A DNA stretch of 63,499 bases, filler included, from Collodictyon triciliatum (taxonomy: Eukaryota), in the NCBI GenBank assembly GCA_043381765.1. It is 5 parts of 5 records of this genome, joined end to end, with 100 filler letters (N's around TTAATTAATTAA, not from the genome) between each part and the next. Parts side by side here need not be neighbours in the genome. Positions count along the whole stretch, not along the records: positions 54,115 to 63,499 come from JBHJMP010001931.1; 4 more parts are not named here. One strand, 5' to 3'. Shown piece after piece: positions 1 through 63,499 of this stretch (within the stretch, counting starts at the first letter, position 1; each line of letters begins with the position of its first letter). A model generated the notes under the pieces. The model did not search any database. It was given only the letters and a program-made list of their open reading frames with translations, and was not told where the DNA came from. The translations under genes were made by a program, and so were the position numbers.

Positions 1-2432
1 CTTTTTTTCTTCTTTTTTTCTTCTTTTTTTCTTCTTTTTTCAAAGTCTTCTCGTGCTGATTCTACCATTACCATCACGCGCGATCACAAGAGGAAAATGC
101 TAACACCTAGTAATCGGTTATACATATATGGAATTTATTGTTTAATACTTATTTAACATTGACTGGAGACAATCACATTTCCACTTACAATTTTCATACT
201 TCAGTAATACATAAATATTTTAACCCCGAAAGATGCCAACAGATAATCTTCTATGTGGAGATTCGTATAACATTGCGCCATTTCGCGTGCAGCTTCGCAC
301 CTTGTAAAATCGATGGTTGTGGGAAATAGGTATTTGGACGGGTAAATGGGCAACAAAATAGCCTTAATTGGATGTGTGCAGTTTCATAAGGGCTCTGTTG
401 ACATCCAAGACTCTCGCCAAAAGGAGGTTGCAGAACGTGGCCGGCTTTGTCCACAGAACGTGCGCTCTCTTATAATGTGCCTATGTTTATGATACATTCT
501 TCCTGCGGTTGTTGGAATCACACGATCACGCCGCCATGTAACCAAACACCCAACGAACTGCCACGAAGAGCATTCAGGATGCGTACGAACCAGGCCATCA
601 TCTTCTTGAGAAAGACCAAAGGCCATGGATGCAAAGCAAAGAACAGACGGAGCCTTGGTCGGTGAAGGGATGCGCCTGACAGCTCAGAAAGCCAAGCTTA
701 TCTATGTTTCGACACAGGATTTGCAAAATGCTTTCCCCCCCTTCTCCTTTCTGCAAATGCTGCTTCCTATGGCCTTCACCTCTGCTGAATTTCAAGACAG
801 AGCAACGAGGCGTTGCGATAGATTCGGTCACTTTCCACCACCTGTGTGCGGTCGGTCAGACGCCATATTCAATATCCTTTCTTTCCTGGCTCCTTTCTTT
901 CTTGACTCCATTCTTTCCTTCTTTACATCCCCTGTAACTGACGATGTATTTGACAGAGTTTCTTTCGGCCTCCCCCAACAAATATCTTCCACAAGAATCA
1001 GACTTGTGCTTTCATTCAGGCCATGAATGTGTAGAGGGGGTTCAGTGTTTGTTGCGGCGCGTTCTCTGATGCACCAAACACCCCAAGCACAACCAACCCA
1101 TCGCCTGCAACCCCAAACCCTTTCTGCAAGATGACAAAAAATCCTGCCTCACTTGCGCAAATATCAATCCACCCACGGCACATAAATACCTACTTTGACA
1201 AACACTGCCCTGTTAATATGATCAGGCGTTTGGAATCATTTGGGACAAAGCAATAACACGCCCAGAGAAATCCACCCAACAAACACACAAAGAACCACAA
1301 AATAACGCCACATGCATTCCCTTCCAGCAGACTCCCTCGAGTGGCGATTGCCTCACTCCTGCCAGTCTCCCTCGCAAAGGACTTCAGATACCCACTCGCT
1401 CGATCTCAGCCGACGTCCGTCCGTCCGCCCGAGACTCCGCCCCAACTAAAACACACAGGCCAGGGCTCCTTCTCACACACCGAGAAACAAACAAAGAGAA
1501 AGGATACGGCCACAAGGAGAGAGTTCTCCAAGTCTCAAGCCGACTGGCAGAAAGAGAGAAACAGAACCAAGGCCCGTGTGTCTACTGGTGCGGTCTTCTT
1601 CTCTTGCAAATCGGAATCTCGGGCGGACTGGCGGTGTGCCTCGTCCGATAGCCCGGAAGGACGTCGAGTCTGCTCATCTTTCATCGTCGCTTCGCCTCTC
1701 CTCAACTTGTGCTCCTGACTCTGCGTCTGCAGTTGGTGTTGTCGGAGAGAAAGAAAAAGAATACGTCTCTCACGTGCTTGTGCGGCGTTTCTTTTCCCCT
1801 TTGGATTCAGGCAGTCGGTGGTACCACGCCTGAACAAACCTTTCCTACTATTATTTTTTTCTTCCCCTCCATCGTTGCTTTCTATCTTTCTTTTTCTTCC
1901 TCTTTTTTTTTCTCCCTTCAAACATTTACTTCGTCTGTGCGCTTAGACACGCCCAATTCTCAGATTTCTTTTTCCTTTTTCTCTTCCTTGCTCACCCACG
2001 CTCTTTGAGAGCTTTGACCTCTTTGTTCAATCGTTTTTCTTCTTTCATTCCCTCCAAACACGCTCACACACAACAAGAACTCATCTGTGACTCACATACC
2101 ACTACTCGTGCTGTCCGTCTACTTCTCAAGAAAGAACCTGCTGCATCTGGAACCCCACATAGCCACAGTAAGACAAGATCGAAAATCCAGCTTCTTCACG
2201 CATACATTTTTTTTAATAATACATACAAATTTGAAAATGGCACGCAGTTGACATTGAATACTGAAGTTGCTGCCGTATATACTATTTTTAGATATATACT
2301 GTTGCTGTTTTTCTTTTCTTTTTTCAACAAAACATTCAGAATTTTTCTTAGGGCTCCCTGAAAAGATATTCAGTAGAATACCCCGAATCACCCATTAACT
2401 CTAAGATATATAAGCAATCCAGTGCCTGTCCC

Positions 2433-4481
2433 ATGAGTAGGAGCCCACCCGAGAGCCTACTACCACAGGATACCACAAACCCTTCAAGAAAAAAGATCAA
2501 GCCTTCAAACACCAACACAGAAGTAGAAAGTTCTAATACTCAGGCGATGCACCTGCCTTCCAGAGGAGCGTATGCCCTGAACCCCCCTCATCTTTTGAGT
2601 GCTACAATTCAGTCACCACTACAACAGCCCCTAAAAGGCCCAAGCTGGTTTATGGACAGTCCCGAGCAACACTACCGTGAGTATACGGGACAACCAAGCA
2701 GAAAGTCTGACCGAGCTGGTGCTCGAGAGACAACACAAATGGTACTGTCGTCATCAGAGAGCTATGAAGTTGCTCACCTTGACATGAAAGGGAGTATCCT
2801 TCCTTCGAAGTCAAGTCACATACTACGCATAGCTACCGATGAACAGTATTCTCACACACATGGTGCCAGTTATAAGCCGATAGTAAAAACACCACAGCAA
2901 TCATCGCTTTTACCTGATTCCCAACACAGCAGTTTTGTCGAAAGCGAAGACGAAGCTGAATATAGTGACGACGTTACAGAACTCGAGAGCCCTGAGGGTG
3001 GCAGAGGAAGACAGATTCCCAAAGCATTTTCAAAGTCTGTACCCACAAAAAATGGAAGTAGAGGAAATAAGTTCTCCTATGAGCAAGATGATTGTCTCTC
3101 TTCTCACGAAGAGAGCAGTGGTGCTCCGAAGAAGCAAAAAACAGCCAGTCACCATAGGAGAGTCGGTAAGGTCATAATGCAGGAGACAGGTGTTCAGACG
3201 AATTCCTGTGAACCCGATACATCACAGGAGGGCCACCCCAGCAAAAAGATTGAAAAGAGCACAGCTGGGAATGAAGGAGCAAGGAAAATCTCCGTATCTG
3301 CATCCTCTCCCTCAGCTACATCCTCCGGGTCGAACTCTGGCAGGGCCAAAGGAAGCAACGCCCCCAAACAAACCACTAAAGTTCAAGCCCAACGGCAGGA
3401 CGAAGCCCAGACCCAGGCGCAGACACAGACGCAGACACAGACACAGACACAGACACAGAGTCGACCGACAGCCCAGAACAGCCGCTCAAACAACCCTGTT
3501 CGAACACAGCTAAGCGAAGAGCAGCGCGCGACGATACTTCAGATGCACGCAGAAGGCCGAAGCTTGCGGGTGATTGCTCGCAGCGTCGGATGCACCCTGT
3601 CGTCTGTTCAGTACACAGTGCAGAAGTTTGAACGATATCACACCATCCAGAACCTCCCAAAGTCAGGGCGAACGCGGCTTCTAGGGACTGTGAACGACGC
3701 CAAGTTTTTCGAGATTGTCGCTATGACAGAAGGCCAGACCCTCACGGAGCGCCTCCAGACCATATCGCACCAGCTGGAGCCCATCATCAAGCACTCTGCA
3801 TCCACGAAAACAATCTACAACGAATGGAAGCGGCGGATTCTGCAATACCCGGCGTCCTGCAGCTACCCCCGACCGCCATCCATGACGATGAACTCCGACA
3901 AGCCCGAAGCGCCAGGACAGAGCCTCGCACAGGAGCCGAAAGCAGAAGCCCACTCACAAGCAACCATCATGGCAGTGGCCTCTGCGCTGGACCAACTCGC
4001 TTCGCAGCAGTTCCTGCCAAGGCCGCAGCAGAACAGCCCAGGTTCACAGAAGCAGCAGCAGCTATCGCCATTGTCGGGTCCGGTAGGGCAAAGCAGACAG
4101 TCGCCCTTGATGCAGGCCCTCATCTCGCGGCTGCCTCCGGCACACCCCATCGACCCGCCCAGGCCGTCGTTCTCGGGCATGCAGGTGCCTTATCTTGCGT
4201 ACTATGTGCCCGGCAGCGGCGCGCCAGCCAACCAGAGCCAGACGTTGTCCGCCCACAGGCACGCGTATCAGGCGTATGCGGCCCTCTTTGGGCATCAGAC
4301 GACGGGGGCGGCCGCGCACACACCCGCAATGCTGCCTCCAATCACGGCGTTCTCTGCTCTCCAAGGTGGCGACAATGACAATGATGACAATGATGACAAT
4401 GATAATGATGATGATAACGATGGCGATGGCGCAAGAGACAACTCCGAGCATTCCGGCCCCCAGACGGAAGGTAACGCATGA
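2433..4481 (+). CDS. Intronless 682-aa low-complexity protein with a Tc1/mariner-type bipartite (paired-like) HTH DNA-binding domain; probable transcription factor
   Basis: Long uninterrupted ORF. Contains LSEEQRATILQMHAEGRSLRVIARSVGCTLSSVQYTVQKF...LPKSGRTR (HTH plus GRPR-like linker) and a second HTH-like stretch ending SASTKTIYNEWKRR (~3507-3840). Flanks are S/Q/P-rich with an acidic tail and an N-terminal RKKIK NLS-like motif. Confidence 0.75.
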   Translation: MSRSPPESLLPQDTTNPSRKKIKPSNTNTEVESSNTQAMHLPSRGAYALNPPHLLSATIQSPLQQPLKGPSWFMDSPEQHYREYTGQPSRKSDRAGARETTQMVLSSSESYEVAHLDMKGSILPSKSSHILRIATDEQYSHTHGASYKPIVKTPQQSSLLPDSQHSSFVESEDEAEYSDDVTELESPEGGRGRQIPKAFSKSVPTKNGSRGNKFSYEQDDCLSSHEESSGAPKKQKTASHHRRVGKVIMQETGVQTNSCEPDTSQEGHPSKKIEKSTAGNEGARKISVSASSPSATSSGSNSGRAKGSNAPKQTTKVQAQRQDEAQTQAQTQTQTQTQTQTQSRPTAQNSRSNNPVRTQLSEEQRATILQMHAEGRSLRVIARSVGCTLSSVQYTVQKFERYHTIQNLPKSGRTRLLGTVNDAKFFEIVAMTEGQTLTERLQTISHQLEPIIKHSASTKTIYNEWKRRILQYPASCSYPRPPSMTMNSDKPEAPGQSLAQEPKAEAHSQATIMAVASALDQLASQQFLPRPQQNSPGSQKQQQLSPLSGPVGQSRQSPLMQALISRLPPAHPIDPPRPSFSGMQVPYLAYYVPGSGAPANQSQTLSAHRHAYQAYAALFGHQTTGAAAHTPAMLPPITAFSALQGGDNDNDDNDDNDNDDDNDGDGARDNSEHSGPQTEGNA

Positions 4482-38106: not shown

Positions 38107-39455
38107 TTATTCAGTCAGCCCCTTCTGACGAAGATACTCTGCAATCTCGTCGAAGCCGCCAAGGTCCGCATAGTAGAGTGCGCTCTCTCCATCTCGTGCT
38201 TTGCGATGCAAGTCCACGCCGGCCTTTGCAAGCAGAACCACACAAGGCGTGTGGCCGTGGAATGCCGCAAGATGCAAAGGCGGGACACCATCGGAGTCAG
38301 AAACCGAGTTCAGGATGCCTATGATGTTTGGTGTAGACAACAGGGCTCTCAAAGCCGCCTCGTTGCCGTGGAAAACAGCCTCCACAGCCAAAATCCCGAG
38401 ATTGTCCTCCGAGCCGTAAAGCTCCTTCTCAATCAACAGCGAGAATATTTGCTGGAATCCCGGCAGCCTCTTTGATACAATCACAAAGAGGGCGTCTCGA
38501 GACAGAGCAGCACGAAACGCATCGGCTCCAATCTCAGTCCTTGAAGATATCAGCTGCACGAGGTCGAGATGTCCCTCGACAGCCGCCAAATACACTGGAG
38601 TGATGCCTTCATATATGCTCTGTGTGTTGATAAGGTCAGGCTGTCGCTCAAGAAGAAGTTCCACGGCTTTGCGCATTCCTCTAATCGATGCAAGAATCAT
38701 ATTATGGCAACTGTAGATATCAAGGGACATTTGCACTTTCAGAAATATAGTACGATACCAAATAATAAAGATATGAACCAAAATTCATATTGTGCGTTGT
38801 GTATTATAAGATGTCTTAATATAAATAAAAATTAGATAAAATTTAAAAAAATTGATAAAAGTTAAAAAAAAAAAAAAGAAGCAAATCTACTTTGAGCAGG
38901 CCATATGAAGGAGAGAAAATCCTGCTGTTGTGAGAGCATTTAACTTTGCATCGGGTCTGGAAGCGAGGTAAATAAAGTAATCCTCCTTCTGAAAGTAAAG
39001 CGAGAAATACAAAGGAGTTTCTCCGGCAAAGTTGGGGCTGTTAATATCTGCGCCTGCCTCTTCAACCAGGATTCGGAGGATTTCCCAACTTCCTTTGGAA
39101 ACCGCTGTGTGTAGTGCTGTTCGTCCGTCTGTGCTGGGATTGTTCACACGAGCACCGGCCTTCTCTACTGCACACCAACCAATATGTCAGTCATTTCGTT
39201 CTAATCGTAGCTATGCATAAACATATTTGCATTCATTTAAAAGGGGGACGCAATACATCAATTTCTGTCTTCCAGTTGATCTAAATAGAGAGAGAGTCTC
39301 ATCTGATATACATGTAAATATATGTAAAAGAGACATATTATATGTTTAACAAAATGGTTATACAAAAGTATCTTGTTGCCTTTGGTTTGTTGTGAAAGAC
39401 GGCCCAGGCGAGAGGCGGAATGTATGCGATCTTAACAGGCAGGAAACCAAAAATA

Positions 39456-60599: not shown

Positions 60600-62454
60600 C
60601 TTTGTTGAGTTTATTTTGAGCGCTGTTAAAGTCCGTTGTCAAGAATACACTTTTTTTGCTTTCTGAGCGATTGCATTCTTTGCACATGAGAGATCTAAAC
60701 ACGTTTTTTGAGTTTCCTTTCAGTTTCATATTTTCCAGTTCTTTTTCGCAGTTACAACACATCTTAGAGGTCTAAATTCATTTACACTAACTGTTTCAAA
60801 TCGTTTGGATAGTATTTTTCGTAATCCTCCTCCGATTGATGGCATAAAATGTTTCACCTGACATTTTCTGCTCCAGTCTCCATACGCCAGAACAACATCA
60901 TTACCAAATGCCTTTTCGATTCAGCCCATAAACAATGGTTCACTTCTTTTTGTATTAACATACTGTCTCCATCTCATCTTTCGAAAAGTTACTTGTTCAT
61001 AAAATCTGGATAGTTCTATCTGATATCTTGATTTCATAGATACATATTCTCGAAATTTTTCATAATCGACGGTGCATGAATTATGTTTACTCAGTCCCGT
61101 CTCTAAATCGATTAAAGATACTCTTGATGCCTCAAACTGCTGATTCTCATCAAAAGTCATGAGACCAAAAGAAACAGCACTTTGTATATCTGTTGTCATG
61201 CATATACCTGAAGCATTGTACTTTTCTTTTTTCTTCTCGCGCAAGAGTATTTTGTGATTTTTAAGAGGTTTGTTATCATGTCTTGTTTGGTGTGCAGTGT
61301 AACATAATTTCTTACCTGCCTCATCCACCATGGAAACCAAATTAAACTTGCCTGCATCCACTCCAACTATTTTTTTTTTTTTACGCTAATAAACATAACT
61401 GCTCTTCGGAAAGTTCATCTATAGAAACATATTCTTGGGGGTGTTTTTGGTTATATTTGAATCTTGAATTTGAAATACCTTTTTTTTCAAACAATAATGA
61501 CACCACCTAGCCGTCTGTTTGTATCATGTATTTAAAATTATAGTCTCTTTGATGAAAGACTCTCTTCTTCATTTCAAAGAACTTATCTCATAGGGTCTCT
61601 TTGCCTCCAATATATTCTTCATTAATGATGTTTTTCCAGTTGGTACTAATAGATATATCAAACATGCGGTATCTAGAGTAATATGACATGGTATATTGGT
61701 AGTTCTTTTAGGGATTGGTTGGTACTGTTTACGTCCAATGTCCTCAAAAATGCGATTCATGTAAATCAGACATGGAATGTACTTATTTGGATTGACTTTG
61801 ACGTCATACTCGATCCCCTTTACAATATCGCTGGAAATGATACGACGCAAATGCGTTATAGACCATTCTTTATATTGTTCCGGTATTTCGAGATACTTGG
61901 AGATGAATTATTTTTTTTTCAACTTTCGTAACTCTGCCTTTTTAATAGTTTCCGTAATATTCTCATCTTTAGGAACTGTTTTATTTATATAGCGCAGTAG
62001 CCTCTTTACAAAATGTTCCTTAATGTTATTATGATAAGCTTTAACATTTGCTTCGCCAAGTACGGTAATACATGAGACAGTCCAACCAACGGAAAGCGTT
62101 CTTCTCGGGACAGAAGGAATAGAAAATCATTGAGATAAAAAAGTCATCATGTCGATACTCAAACCTGGATGTTTTAATCTTGCGGGTCTATCTTGTGAAA
62201 CTATTCCGACTGTCTTGAAAGCATACAAAAAACAACATTTCATCGATTGTTGGGAGTTGTTGTGATTTCAATATGTAACATCTTGCAAATAAATAGGTGT
62301 GGGTAACCAAGTTATGATACAATAAAACCGTACCGTTGATTTTGTCATAGTCATTCGCATTCTTTACATCCGACTTCAGAGGTGTTTTCACATATCGATA
62401 GTCTGGTTTTACAGACTTTAGATTCTCAGATTCAAGAGGTTTTCTTTTCTTCAT
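60600..62454 (-). pseudogene. Fanzor1 (TnpB-like RNA-guided RuvC nuclease) pseudogene
   Basis: Frame-corrected motifs: KTPLKS..KINGTV..NLVTHTYLF; YHNNIKEHF; YDVKVNP; PIPKRTTNIPCHITLDT; YMIQTDG.VVSLLF; IVGVDAGK (RuvC-I); FRKMRWRQY; AYGDWS; NEF.TSKMCCNC (RuvC-II plus Zn finger); CKEC; TTDFNSAQN (RuvC-III). About five stops and five frameshifts; no introns. Confidence 0.88.
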
Positions 62455-63499
62455 CTGAAAGTCTTCGGTTTACTTTTTCCTTTAGAAAACCACCGATTCA
62501 ATTTTAATAAAACTTAAGTCAATTAGTCAATTTAATAAATTAGTGATAATAAAAACCAAATACATAAAATCAATTTATGTAAAATTAAGCATCTACTGAG
62601 ACTTTCAAAATATGCGAATTGCACAAACAAACACACAAAGTTTTTTATAAGTGATTTGAGACAAAACGCTGAGAGCCGATTCGGCGAGTTCGAAAGGACA
62701 GCCGTGTAGTCATTGCGACTGAAAGTCAACATATCGACCCCAAACAATATGATTACCACCGCAAGTGTGGATAATATGCTTTTTTGAAATGCATGTTTGG
62801 TGGCAGCTTTATAGGGTGGGTTCTGTCTAGGCCAAGGCCACGGGCTTGTTTGTAATTTTTGAATTTTAATGATATTACATAACGGAAAATAAAATGTATA
62901 TTGATTACAGGAATAGAATGATATTAATAAGTATTTTTAATCGTATTATAGTACTAATTATTCAAATCTATTATACAGATTGTTTCTTGGATTCATCAAA
63001 ACTAGCTTTCATCAATCCAGATTTAATTTAATAATTGTCTATGCAATAAACTGCTATATATAAGTACACTATCGTGGCATAAAAAGTGTTGTGGGTTGAA
63101 AGGGATAAAACCAAGTTCGTCACAGCCATTGTGATGAAATTTATCCATTTACAGGCTGAATGAGACTGAAGAGAAAGAAAACGAGAAAGAAAAGGAAAAA
63201 AGGAACGGATGAATGAAACAGAGCAACTAACACTGAGCACTATATTCATACTTATTTTGCTACCCGCGGGTTGATGACTTGAGCCTGATAGGTCTTTTTT
63301 TTATTCCTCCTTATTATATATTATTTATTTGTTTCAAAGAGCTCGCTCCGTCTTATTCGTAGGTTGTTGTACTCACGGGTCGGTGCAGCTGGTGTCTTGA
63401 TCGTTGGTGTGTCTCGATGCATAACCTGCGCTGCGAGGGGAGTGGTCAAGCGACCTTTTCGCTCTCTGGGTTGGCTGCGTCGGCCTTCTCGGTTTGCGT

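Follow-up and report, generated by a model that had tools for sequence, protein, structure and literature searches.

We describe here a decayed nuclease gene in a stretch of DNA from the eukaryote Collodictyon triciliatum (assembly GCA_043381765.1). The stretch, called the window throughout, comprises 63,499 nucleotides (nt) in five parts joined end to end, and the gene lies in the part taken from record JBHJMP010001931.1. The minus strand from 62454 to 60505 carries a single intronless Fanzor1 gene of about 649 codons, broken by 11 disabling lesions. The best explanation, which we hold to be very probable, is that it is a dead Fanzor1 copy from a multi-copy family of the host lineage, and that it decayed neutrally after insertion. 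Fanzor1 proteins are eukaryotic and viral TnpB-like RuvC endonucleases that depend on a guide RNA and travel as passengers in DNA transposons.

The gene was delimited with a frameshift-aware dynamic programme for DNA-to-protein alignment (window 60351-62520, minus strand). Aligned to P0171, a protein of 648 residues and the closest intact relative found, it covered residues 1-642 with 391 of 636 identical (61.5%), which confirmed the broken minus-strand gene put forward in an original prediction made from the DNA. This alignment spans the ATG at 62454 to position 60517, and the last reading frame closes at the stop codon at 60505-60507, about 100 nt further than the predicted end at 60600. Instead of the four open reading frames (ORFs) expected, there are seven stop-to-stop pieces of 41-154 residues, lying head to tail on the minus strand (62469-60505). 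A second relative, P0004 (634 residues), gave 267 of 608 identical residues (43.9%) in the frameshift-aware alignment and an E-value of 3e-90 in tblastn; the gene was its sole matching place, and no second copy was found within the window. A frameshift near 60564 in the P0004 alignment was rejected, the tail agreeing with P0171 in frame.

Because the alignment to P0171 contains no intron-sized gap, the gene is intronless, as had been proposed. One candidate intron was considered, an in-frame stretch of 87 nt bounded by GT..AG within an insert of about 35 codons. The insert follows EKKKEK in the window, in P0171 and in the fragment P0003. Since the last two encode a similar in-frame insert, it is coding and not an intron, and no joint matching a spliced-out 87-nt insert was listed among the contigs of the public runs described below.

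Assignment to Fanzor1 is supported by matches, in sequence and by profile, to the three solved Fanzor1 proteins and to no other protein at a similar level of significance. Two non-overlapping translated pieces, the middle part P0002 and the RuvC part P0001, matched successive and collinear parts of the same Fanzor1 chains in the PDB. P0002 matched PpFz1 (E 5.8e-7), GtFz1 (1.6e-5) and SpuFz1 (2.6e-4), the other three of the six matches listed (E<=10) having E-values of at least 0.43. P0001 matched PpFz1 (1.1e-4), SpuFz1 (3.7e-4) and GtFz1 (3e-3), three of the four listed, with the next at 0.82. An exhaustive HMMER search with P0001 found 1459 library proteins at E<=1e-3, 561 at <=1e-10 and 10 at <=1e-30, and the full-length relatives recovered by HMMER were mostly 580-760 residues long. 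Residues 14-607 of P0004 align end to end with SpuFz1 (E 9.2e-37). A profile, A1, made from 27 of 66 full-length representatives (mostly the best-ranked), matched the three Fanzor1 chains at 1.3e-93, 3.6e-90 and 4.2e-71, so that the predicted family identity holds. Its next matches were TnpB/Cas12-like, at 9e-4 (LaTranC) or worse, and involved the zinc-finger/RuvC-III end only. Full-length homology to characterised Fanzor1 proteins was thus found with the fragments, with P0004 and with the family profile. Nothing pointed to Fanzor2 or the IS607 type: the strong PDB matches were all named Fanzor1, and there was no recombinase ORF in the flanks. P0171 itself had no Pfam match at E<=0.1.

The catalytic core can still be read. 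All three codons of the RuvC triad, read directly in the DNA, stand where the original prediction had placed them (Table 1), and the zinc finger and TDG motif that it listed as surviving are also there. The two C-x2-C pairs of the finger, at 60748-60759 and 60673-60684, align to C537/C540 and C564/C567, which are Cys in 25, 24, 25 and 25 of the 27 relatives, respectively. The residue at 60692, Ser here and Cys in other copies, was considered as a lost zinc ligand and ruled out, since the position to which it aligns, 561, is not conserved (Leu in 17 of 27). A true loss is that of the Arg in the 'RD' motif: the window reads LTTDF where P0171 reads LTRDF, and R580 is Arg in 26 of the 27 relatives.

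The rearranged RuvC-II feature is also present, in that the Glu aligned to E530 follows the invariant Gly of AYGDWS (G496) at a distance of 34 residues. Bao and Jurka call G500 and E536 of Fanzor1 extremely conserved (PMC3627910), and Jiang et al. describe an alternative Glu 'approximately 45 residues away' (PMC10530073). The Glu at 60777-60779 would then be this 'alternative' RuvC-II Glu, and G496 of AYGDWS would mark the site of the canonical Glu, which Fanzor1 has lost. Of the Fanzor1 motif of Bao and Jurka, D-X(125,275)-[TS][TS]-X-X-C4 zinc finger-X(5,50)-RD (PMC3627910), the window has the D, the TS, the four Cys and the final D, but Thr in place of the R of RD; in P0171 numbering, 194 residues separate the D (D364) from the TS (T558). 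The Fanzor1 ancestor may have been an active RNA-guided nuclease.

To place the gene among related copies, contigs (not reads) of four public runs were aligned to it at a likeness of at least 85%. Run X3 is from a coded organism (the library type being a guess), X1 and X2 are freshwater metagenomes, and X7 is a freshwater metatranscriptome. The gene was covered by 329 contigs of X3 (30 of 30 bins) and 114 of X1 (29 of 30 bins), 85-99% alike; in X3 the numbers at >=99, 95-99, 90-95 and <90% likeness were 22, 71, 138 and 98. X2 gave six contigs, one of which (151 nt) was identical at 61635-61785, and X7 gave one of 170 nt, identical to 61413-61582; gaps in the coverage of these two runs are uninformative. 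The identical contigs in X2 and X7 suggest fresh water as a possible habitat of the source organism, or of a very close relative. Many 85-99% alike pieces over the whole gene bear out the expectation that this lineage carries a Fanzor family. They support a multi-copy Fanzor1 family, some copies of which are free of the window's frameshifts near 60770 and 62040. An extra G behind 62040 was seen in three contigs of X1 (depth 32.9/32.9) and six of X3 (120.2/167.4), and an extra T behind 60770 in two of X1 (16.2/25.4) and three of X3 (47.7/128.1). At the site of the window's extra TAA, 61381, two X3 contigs were without the 3 nt.

Intact relatives were sought among longer proteins. A word-indexed search gave one match at E<=1e-20 among 896 candidates, and this was P0171, which matched the RuvC fragment at E 4.6e-82 (68% identical over 92% of the fragment). 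In the cluster of P0171, two members are full-length, and their contigs measure 2610 and 2597 nt. Intact relatives of 648 residues, at the 61.5% identity given above, thus occur in metagenomes, so that the suggestion of intact copies elsewhere holds in part, for relatives of this kind; none was demonstrated from the same genome. Fanzor1 has been reported from genomes with up to 122 copies (PMC10530073).

The lesions in the alignment to P0171 are five in-frame stops and six frameshifts, the placements of the latter being approximate (Table 1). The same five stops had been predicted, and the five frameshifts listed with them recur within a few bases; a sixth, near 62141, had been overlooked. No open reading frame able to yield a nuclease remains. 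The window copy is a pseudogene of the Fanzor1 family, not a working member.

Could the gene instead be intact in the organism, its lesions being assembly or homopolymer errors, or the product of a deviant genetic code or of programmed frameshifts? We find this scarcely credible. A or T runs do touch three of the six frameshifts (62232, 62141 and 61380) and two of the five stops (61908 and 61381), and N gaps mark the assembly as a draft. However, the other six lesions, three frameshifts and three stops, are clear of homopolymers, and homopolymer sequencing error therefore cannot restore the frame. All three types of stop codon are present, and the Arg of RD has been lost. Runs of N occur in the window at 12.3, 21.7, 29.6-30.1, 34.3-34.9, 35.9-36.5, 37.3-37.6 and 40.1 kb, alongside many microsatellites; the homopolymer-linked lesions are therefore to be taken cautiously.

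Substitutions also argue against an intact gene. Contigs from other copies differ from the window at 507 positions, and the 40 best supported of these, all of which were kept, were tallied. All but one lay in codons (39 of 40), spread over codon positions 1, 2 and 3 as 14, 12 and 13, and 11 were synonymous. The other copies carried the P0171 residue where the window did not at 14 sites, the reverse was found at 2, and neither had it at 12. The ratio for private replacements in the window is thus 14:2 in the direction away from the conserved residue, with an even spread over codon positions. In the tree described below, the terminal branch of the window is twice that of P0171 (0.451 vs 0.232). 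With substitutions even over codon positions and a long terminal branch, the coding part shows a pattern of neutral decay.

Relatives of the gene reside in giant viruses. Four viral contigs, 57-254 kb long and including one labelled as a giant-virus bin, carry genes 80-88% identical to P0004, as do metagenome contigs. Locus L003 is flanked by genes for a fused mRNA-capping enzyme and for SNF2-type helicases, and L001 by one for HSP70; both settings are in keeping with giant viruses. The loci are homologous up to a pair of 32-nt inverted ends, which enclose 3.3 kb (L001 8637-11952). The enclosed unit holds a divergent 346-residue ORF with a DDE_3 domain (PF13358, 1.3e-13) and a helix-turn-helix (HTH) as well as the Fanzor gene, with 15 nt from the Fanzor stop to the right end. 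This Tc1/mariner-type unit is found in L001, L003, L006, L009 and L010, at different insertion sites with different flanks, the copies being 74-80% alike, and L013 3609-5637 is a 2-kb Fanzor-only derivative with 25-nt ends. A scan of viral sequences with an alignment of four proteins found 39 distinct loci, the best of them 44-47% identical to P0171, and a scan with P0171 alone found no locus. Fanzor1 has been described in protists, fungi, plants, arthropods and giant viruses, carried by Mariner/Tc1 and other transposons and also in Fanzor-only elements with Mariner ends (PMC3627910, PMC10432273, PMC10530073).

A tree was computed with FastTree (LG+gamma, 599 columns) and rooted at the midpoint. 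Its 74 rows were the window (breaks written as X), P0171, 66 representatives and six locus translations. The representatives were those of 560-760 residues among 150 listed, the 84 shorter or longer ones being left out. The window and P0171 formed a clade (support 1.0) whose sister (0.984) was the giant-virus-borne clade. The tree thus supports the link to giant viruses that the original prediction had mentioned. Most of the other leaves have no known source, and the tree is therefore silent on the direction of transfer. The family may have originated by exchange with giant viruses.

This viral link raises another explanation, that the relic arrived within an integrated giant-virus fragment and is the leftover of an endogenised virus, not the result of host transposition. 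The sister clade sits on giant-virus contigs with such neighbours as the capping enzyme and helicases of L003, the wider family counts 39 distinct viral loci, and virus-integrated Fanzor elements in host contigs have been described by Bao and Jurka (PMC3627910). We nevertheless judge it unlikely. P0171 shares no more than 44-47% identity with its closest viral counterparts, and a scan with P0171 alone found no viral locus, whereas the hundreds of contig pieces at 85-99% likeness suggest amplification in a cellular genome. Moreover, Pfam identified no virus-specific family in seven large ORFs of the window (two had ankyrin repeats and one an HTH), and viral-type inverted ends are absent.

The 3' end of the gene was compared with the viral elements at the RNA level. 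A common fold of 41 predicted pairs, 9 of which change on both sides, is shared by the terminal 160 nt of six distinct elements, viral or metagenomic; the folded region reaches the right end of each element (L001 11795-11952 and its counterparts in L003, L006, L009, L010 and L013). The region overlaps the last ~35 codons, and a Fanzor guide RNA is expected to overlap the end of the ORF (PMC10432273). We propose that this fold is probably a guide-RNA scaffold. A covariance model of it, R1, matched the window at the expected place, across the end of the decayed gene (60465-60560), at 26.1 bits with filters off. The rough E-value was 2.4e-6 when 5.5 kb were searched and 2.8e-5 for the whole window, where the next match scored 7.8 bits. 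The match is limited to the first two hairpins, the distal 69 positions of R1 being answered by 9 nt only. All its pairs are standard, though the sequence and the encoded peptide differ, and folding the single sequence gives the same two hairpins. With moderate confidence, therefore, this segment can be viewed, on the strength of the model, as a partial relic of a guide-RNA scaffold. No Rfam family was found in the window.

Several results weigh against the interpretation given so far. For the RNA, R1 was built from the 3' ends of the giant-virus elements, from 6 sequences with an effective number of 1.2, and with default filters the search gave no match, the segment at 60465-60560 being lost. 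The fold energy of 246 nt of this region was not unusual (z -1.34), and 19 of 200 shuffles folded as well. For transposition, tblastn of the viral transposase against the window gave nothing (best E 0.54), the viral end motifs gave one match with 3 mismatches at 39234, which is at chance level, and none otherwise, a repeat search over 58.5-63.5 kb gave no convincing inverted ends, and no target-site duplication was found. For the multi-copy family, the best run shares 0.12 of the stretch's sampled words and no run reaches half, and the run contigs show diverged copies without giving the copy number in this genome or the organism. Finally, for the family identity, the 88-residue C-terminal piece alone had no Fanzor match in the PDB, and Pfam on the seven ORF pieces gave OrfB_IS605 at 17.7 bits (cut-off 30.5) and Cas12f1-like_TNB at E 0.38.

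Table 1. Features of the decayed Fanzor1 gene and its surroundings, in window coordinates.
Feature	Position	Strand	Remarks
Decayed Fanzor1 gene	60505..62454	-	ATG 62452-62454, terminal stop 60505-60507
Frameshift	~62232	-	In T run; seen in P0004 and P0171 alignments
Frameshift	~62141	-	In T run; seen in P0004 and P0171 alignments
REC/WED-like middle part, P0002	61569..62126	-	One TAA read through as X
Frameshift	62040..62041	-	Window 1 nt short; not beside homopolymer
In-frame TAA stop	61908-61910	-	After A9 run
Frameshift	61603..61604	-	Window 1 nt short; not in homopolymer
In-frame TGA stop	61588-61590	-	13 nt past frameshift ~61603; not beside homopolymer
T-D-G motif	61510-61518	-	T318 invariant, D319 and G320 at least 90% in the 27-relative alignment A1
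In-frame TAG stop	61507-61509	-	Directly after T-D-G motif; not beside homopolymer
RuvC part, P0001	60726..61385	-	RuvC-I Asp and Fanzor-type Glu; one TGA read through as X
Extra TAA codon (61381-61383) and 1-nt frameshift (~61380)	61380..61383	-	Head of A13 run
RuvC-I Asp, GAT	61356..61358	-	In VGVDAGK; codon read directly; aligns to D372, invariant in 27 relatives
Subfamily-specific coding insert, ~35 codons	61119..61223	-	Relative to giant-virus clade; common to P0171 and P0003
In-frame TGA stop	60921-60923	-	Not beside homopolymer
Fanzor-type RuvC-II Glu, GAA	60777..60779	-	In VNEF before TSK-CxxC; aligns to E530, invariant 27/27
Frameshift between NEF and TSK	60772..60773	-	Window 1 nt short; not beside homopolymer
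C4 zinc finger (MCCNC ... MCKEC)	60673..60759	-	All four ligand cysteines retained
RuvC-III Asp, GAC	60631..60633	-	Codon read directly; aligns to D581, 27/27
Putative guide-RNA (omega RNA)-like scaffold relic	60465..60560	-	Two hairpins across last codons and stop codon; R1 match
309-codon ORF	59493-60422	-	Hydrophobic stretches, no Pfam match; directly downstream of relic

The surroundings of the gene hold no recognisable partner for transposition. The 1045 nt from the gene upstream to the window end contain only short or low-complexity ORFs without Pfam matches. The predicted lack of a transposase within about 1 kb upstream was upheld by tblastn with the viral transposase and by Pfam on the ORFs. 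A local alignment of the 3' flank with the 1 kb upstream scored 20, compared with 19.2 +/- 2.4 for shuffles, and so revealed no shared inverted repeat. Carriage by a transposon, as judged from ends and a transposase, was seen in the relatives and not in the window, where 1045 nt lie upstream of the gene. Mobility may have been provided by a transposase supplied in trans.

Downstream, the AT-rich relic yields near 60400 to a GC-richer ORF of 309 codons on the same strand, whose first ATG (~60368) lies about 115 nt past the end of the relic and about 100 nt beyond the guide-RNA-like hairpins. This closeness, together with the metatranscriptome contig from within the gene, could be taken to mean that the relic is a domesticated or regulatory remnant, whose hairpins or transcript now serve the downstream host ORF. 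We consider this very improbable, since a contig from an RNA library is no proof of transcription and the coding part has a pattern of neutral decay.

Further features were noted elsewhere in the window. About 1.3 kb downstream of the gene, 59102-59211 is a tandem pair of 55-nt units, each with a run of ~16-20 G flanked by A runs. A frame of 709 codons at 2352-4481 (+), rich in low-complexity sequence, encodes an HTH of the Sleeping-Beauty type (HTH_38) at residues ~384-432 (E about 1e-6). No DDE domain was found in this frame, and its HTH may be a DNA-binding domain that a host gene took over from a transposase. Frames with ankyrin repeats lie at 52396-53283 (+) and 38107-38784 (-), with Ank_2 at E 6.5e-36 and 1e-17, respectively.

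We propose the following history for the gene. The intact ancestor would have encoded a protein of about 648 residues with a basic KKRK N-terminus, REC and WED domains, a split RuvC domain with the Fanzor-type Glu and a C4 zinc finger, and its guide-RNA scaffold would have been transcribed from the gene's own 3' end. A copy would then have inserted and decayed neutrally, acquiring the five stops and six frameshifts and losing the Arg of RD. What is seen at present would be a solo relic for which neither a transposase nor inverted ends can be recognised, and which lies some 115 nt upstream of the ORF of 309 codons, unrelated to it.

A dead copy as such leaves the understanding of Fanzors unchanged. 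Multi-copy and degenerate Fanzor1 elements have already been described (PMC3627910, PMC10530073), nothing was found in the available parts of the Fanzor literature that would make a decayed copy surprising, and the family may already be listed in the Fanzor catalogues supplementing PMC10432273 and PMC10530073. The window copy does point to a host lineage in which Fanzor1 forms a multi-copy family, and natural intact relatives of this family (P0171 and P0173) are at hand. The family is tied, with good tree support, to a clade on Tc1/mariner-type elements of freshwater giant viruses, and this tie fits the published idea of viruses spreading Fanzors. The 3'-end hairpins, kept while the encoded tail differs, are a compact example of what would be RNA-level constraint on a coding region. 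More tentatively, the host lineage, on this reading a freshwater organism, may still hold a young and possibly active Fanzor1 family. Its guide-RNA scaffold would have kept the two-hairpin shape although the overlapping peptide became completely different from that of the sister clade in giant-virus Tc1/mariner elements, and this would point to a recent exchange of an RNA-guided nuclease between giant viruses and their host. We think this somewhat less likely to be right than wrong; if true, it would offer a nuclease/guide pair ready for testing.

How does the window gene compare with known systems? Like the old multi-copy Fanzor1 families, of which CMe-1A of Cyanidioschyzon has ~150 copies that are ~80% alike (PMC3627910, PMC10432273, PMC10530073), the window family has many diverged copies, some of them free of lesions seen here, and intact relatives persist. 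The likeness to TnpB (IS200/IS605) and Cas12 (LaTranC, Cas12g) lies in the homologous RuvC-III/zinc-finger part (profile E 9e-4 to 0.05) and includes the weak OrfB_IS605 and TNB matches in Pfam. Compared with the similarity to Fanzor1 it is weaker by over 60 orders of magnitude, the window is without TnpA, and the setting is eukaryotic or viral.

Another parallel is with the Tc1/mariner-Fanzor1 transposons of giant viruses (PGv-1 type; PMC3627910): the window's sister clade sits in the 3.3-kb DDE_3 units with 32-nt ends. These units and L013 match the Mariner plus Fanzor1 and the Fanzor1-only elements published there (PMC3627910). Unlike them, the window has neither that transposase nor those ends, and protein identity is ~44%.

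A further comparison is with the solved Fanzor1 proteins SpuFz1 (Spizellomyces punctatus, 8GKH), PpFz1 (Parasitella parasitica, 9CF0) and GtFz1 (Guillardia theta, 9CER). Unlike these, the window copy is broken at 11 places and has lost the Arg of RD, and its subfamily differs in the C-terminal tail and in carrying, within the RuvC region, the insert of ~35 residues. Nevertheless, the domain order is the same from end to end, and the solved proteins share with the window family the RuvC D/E/D triad, the TSK-C4 zinc finger and the RD-N-A-N tail.

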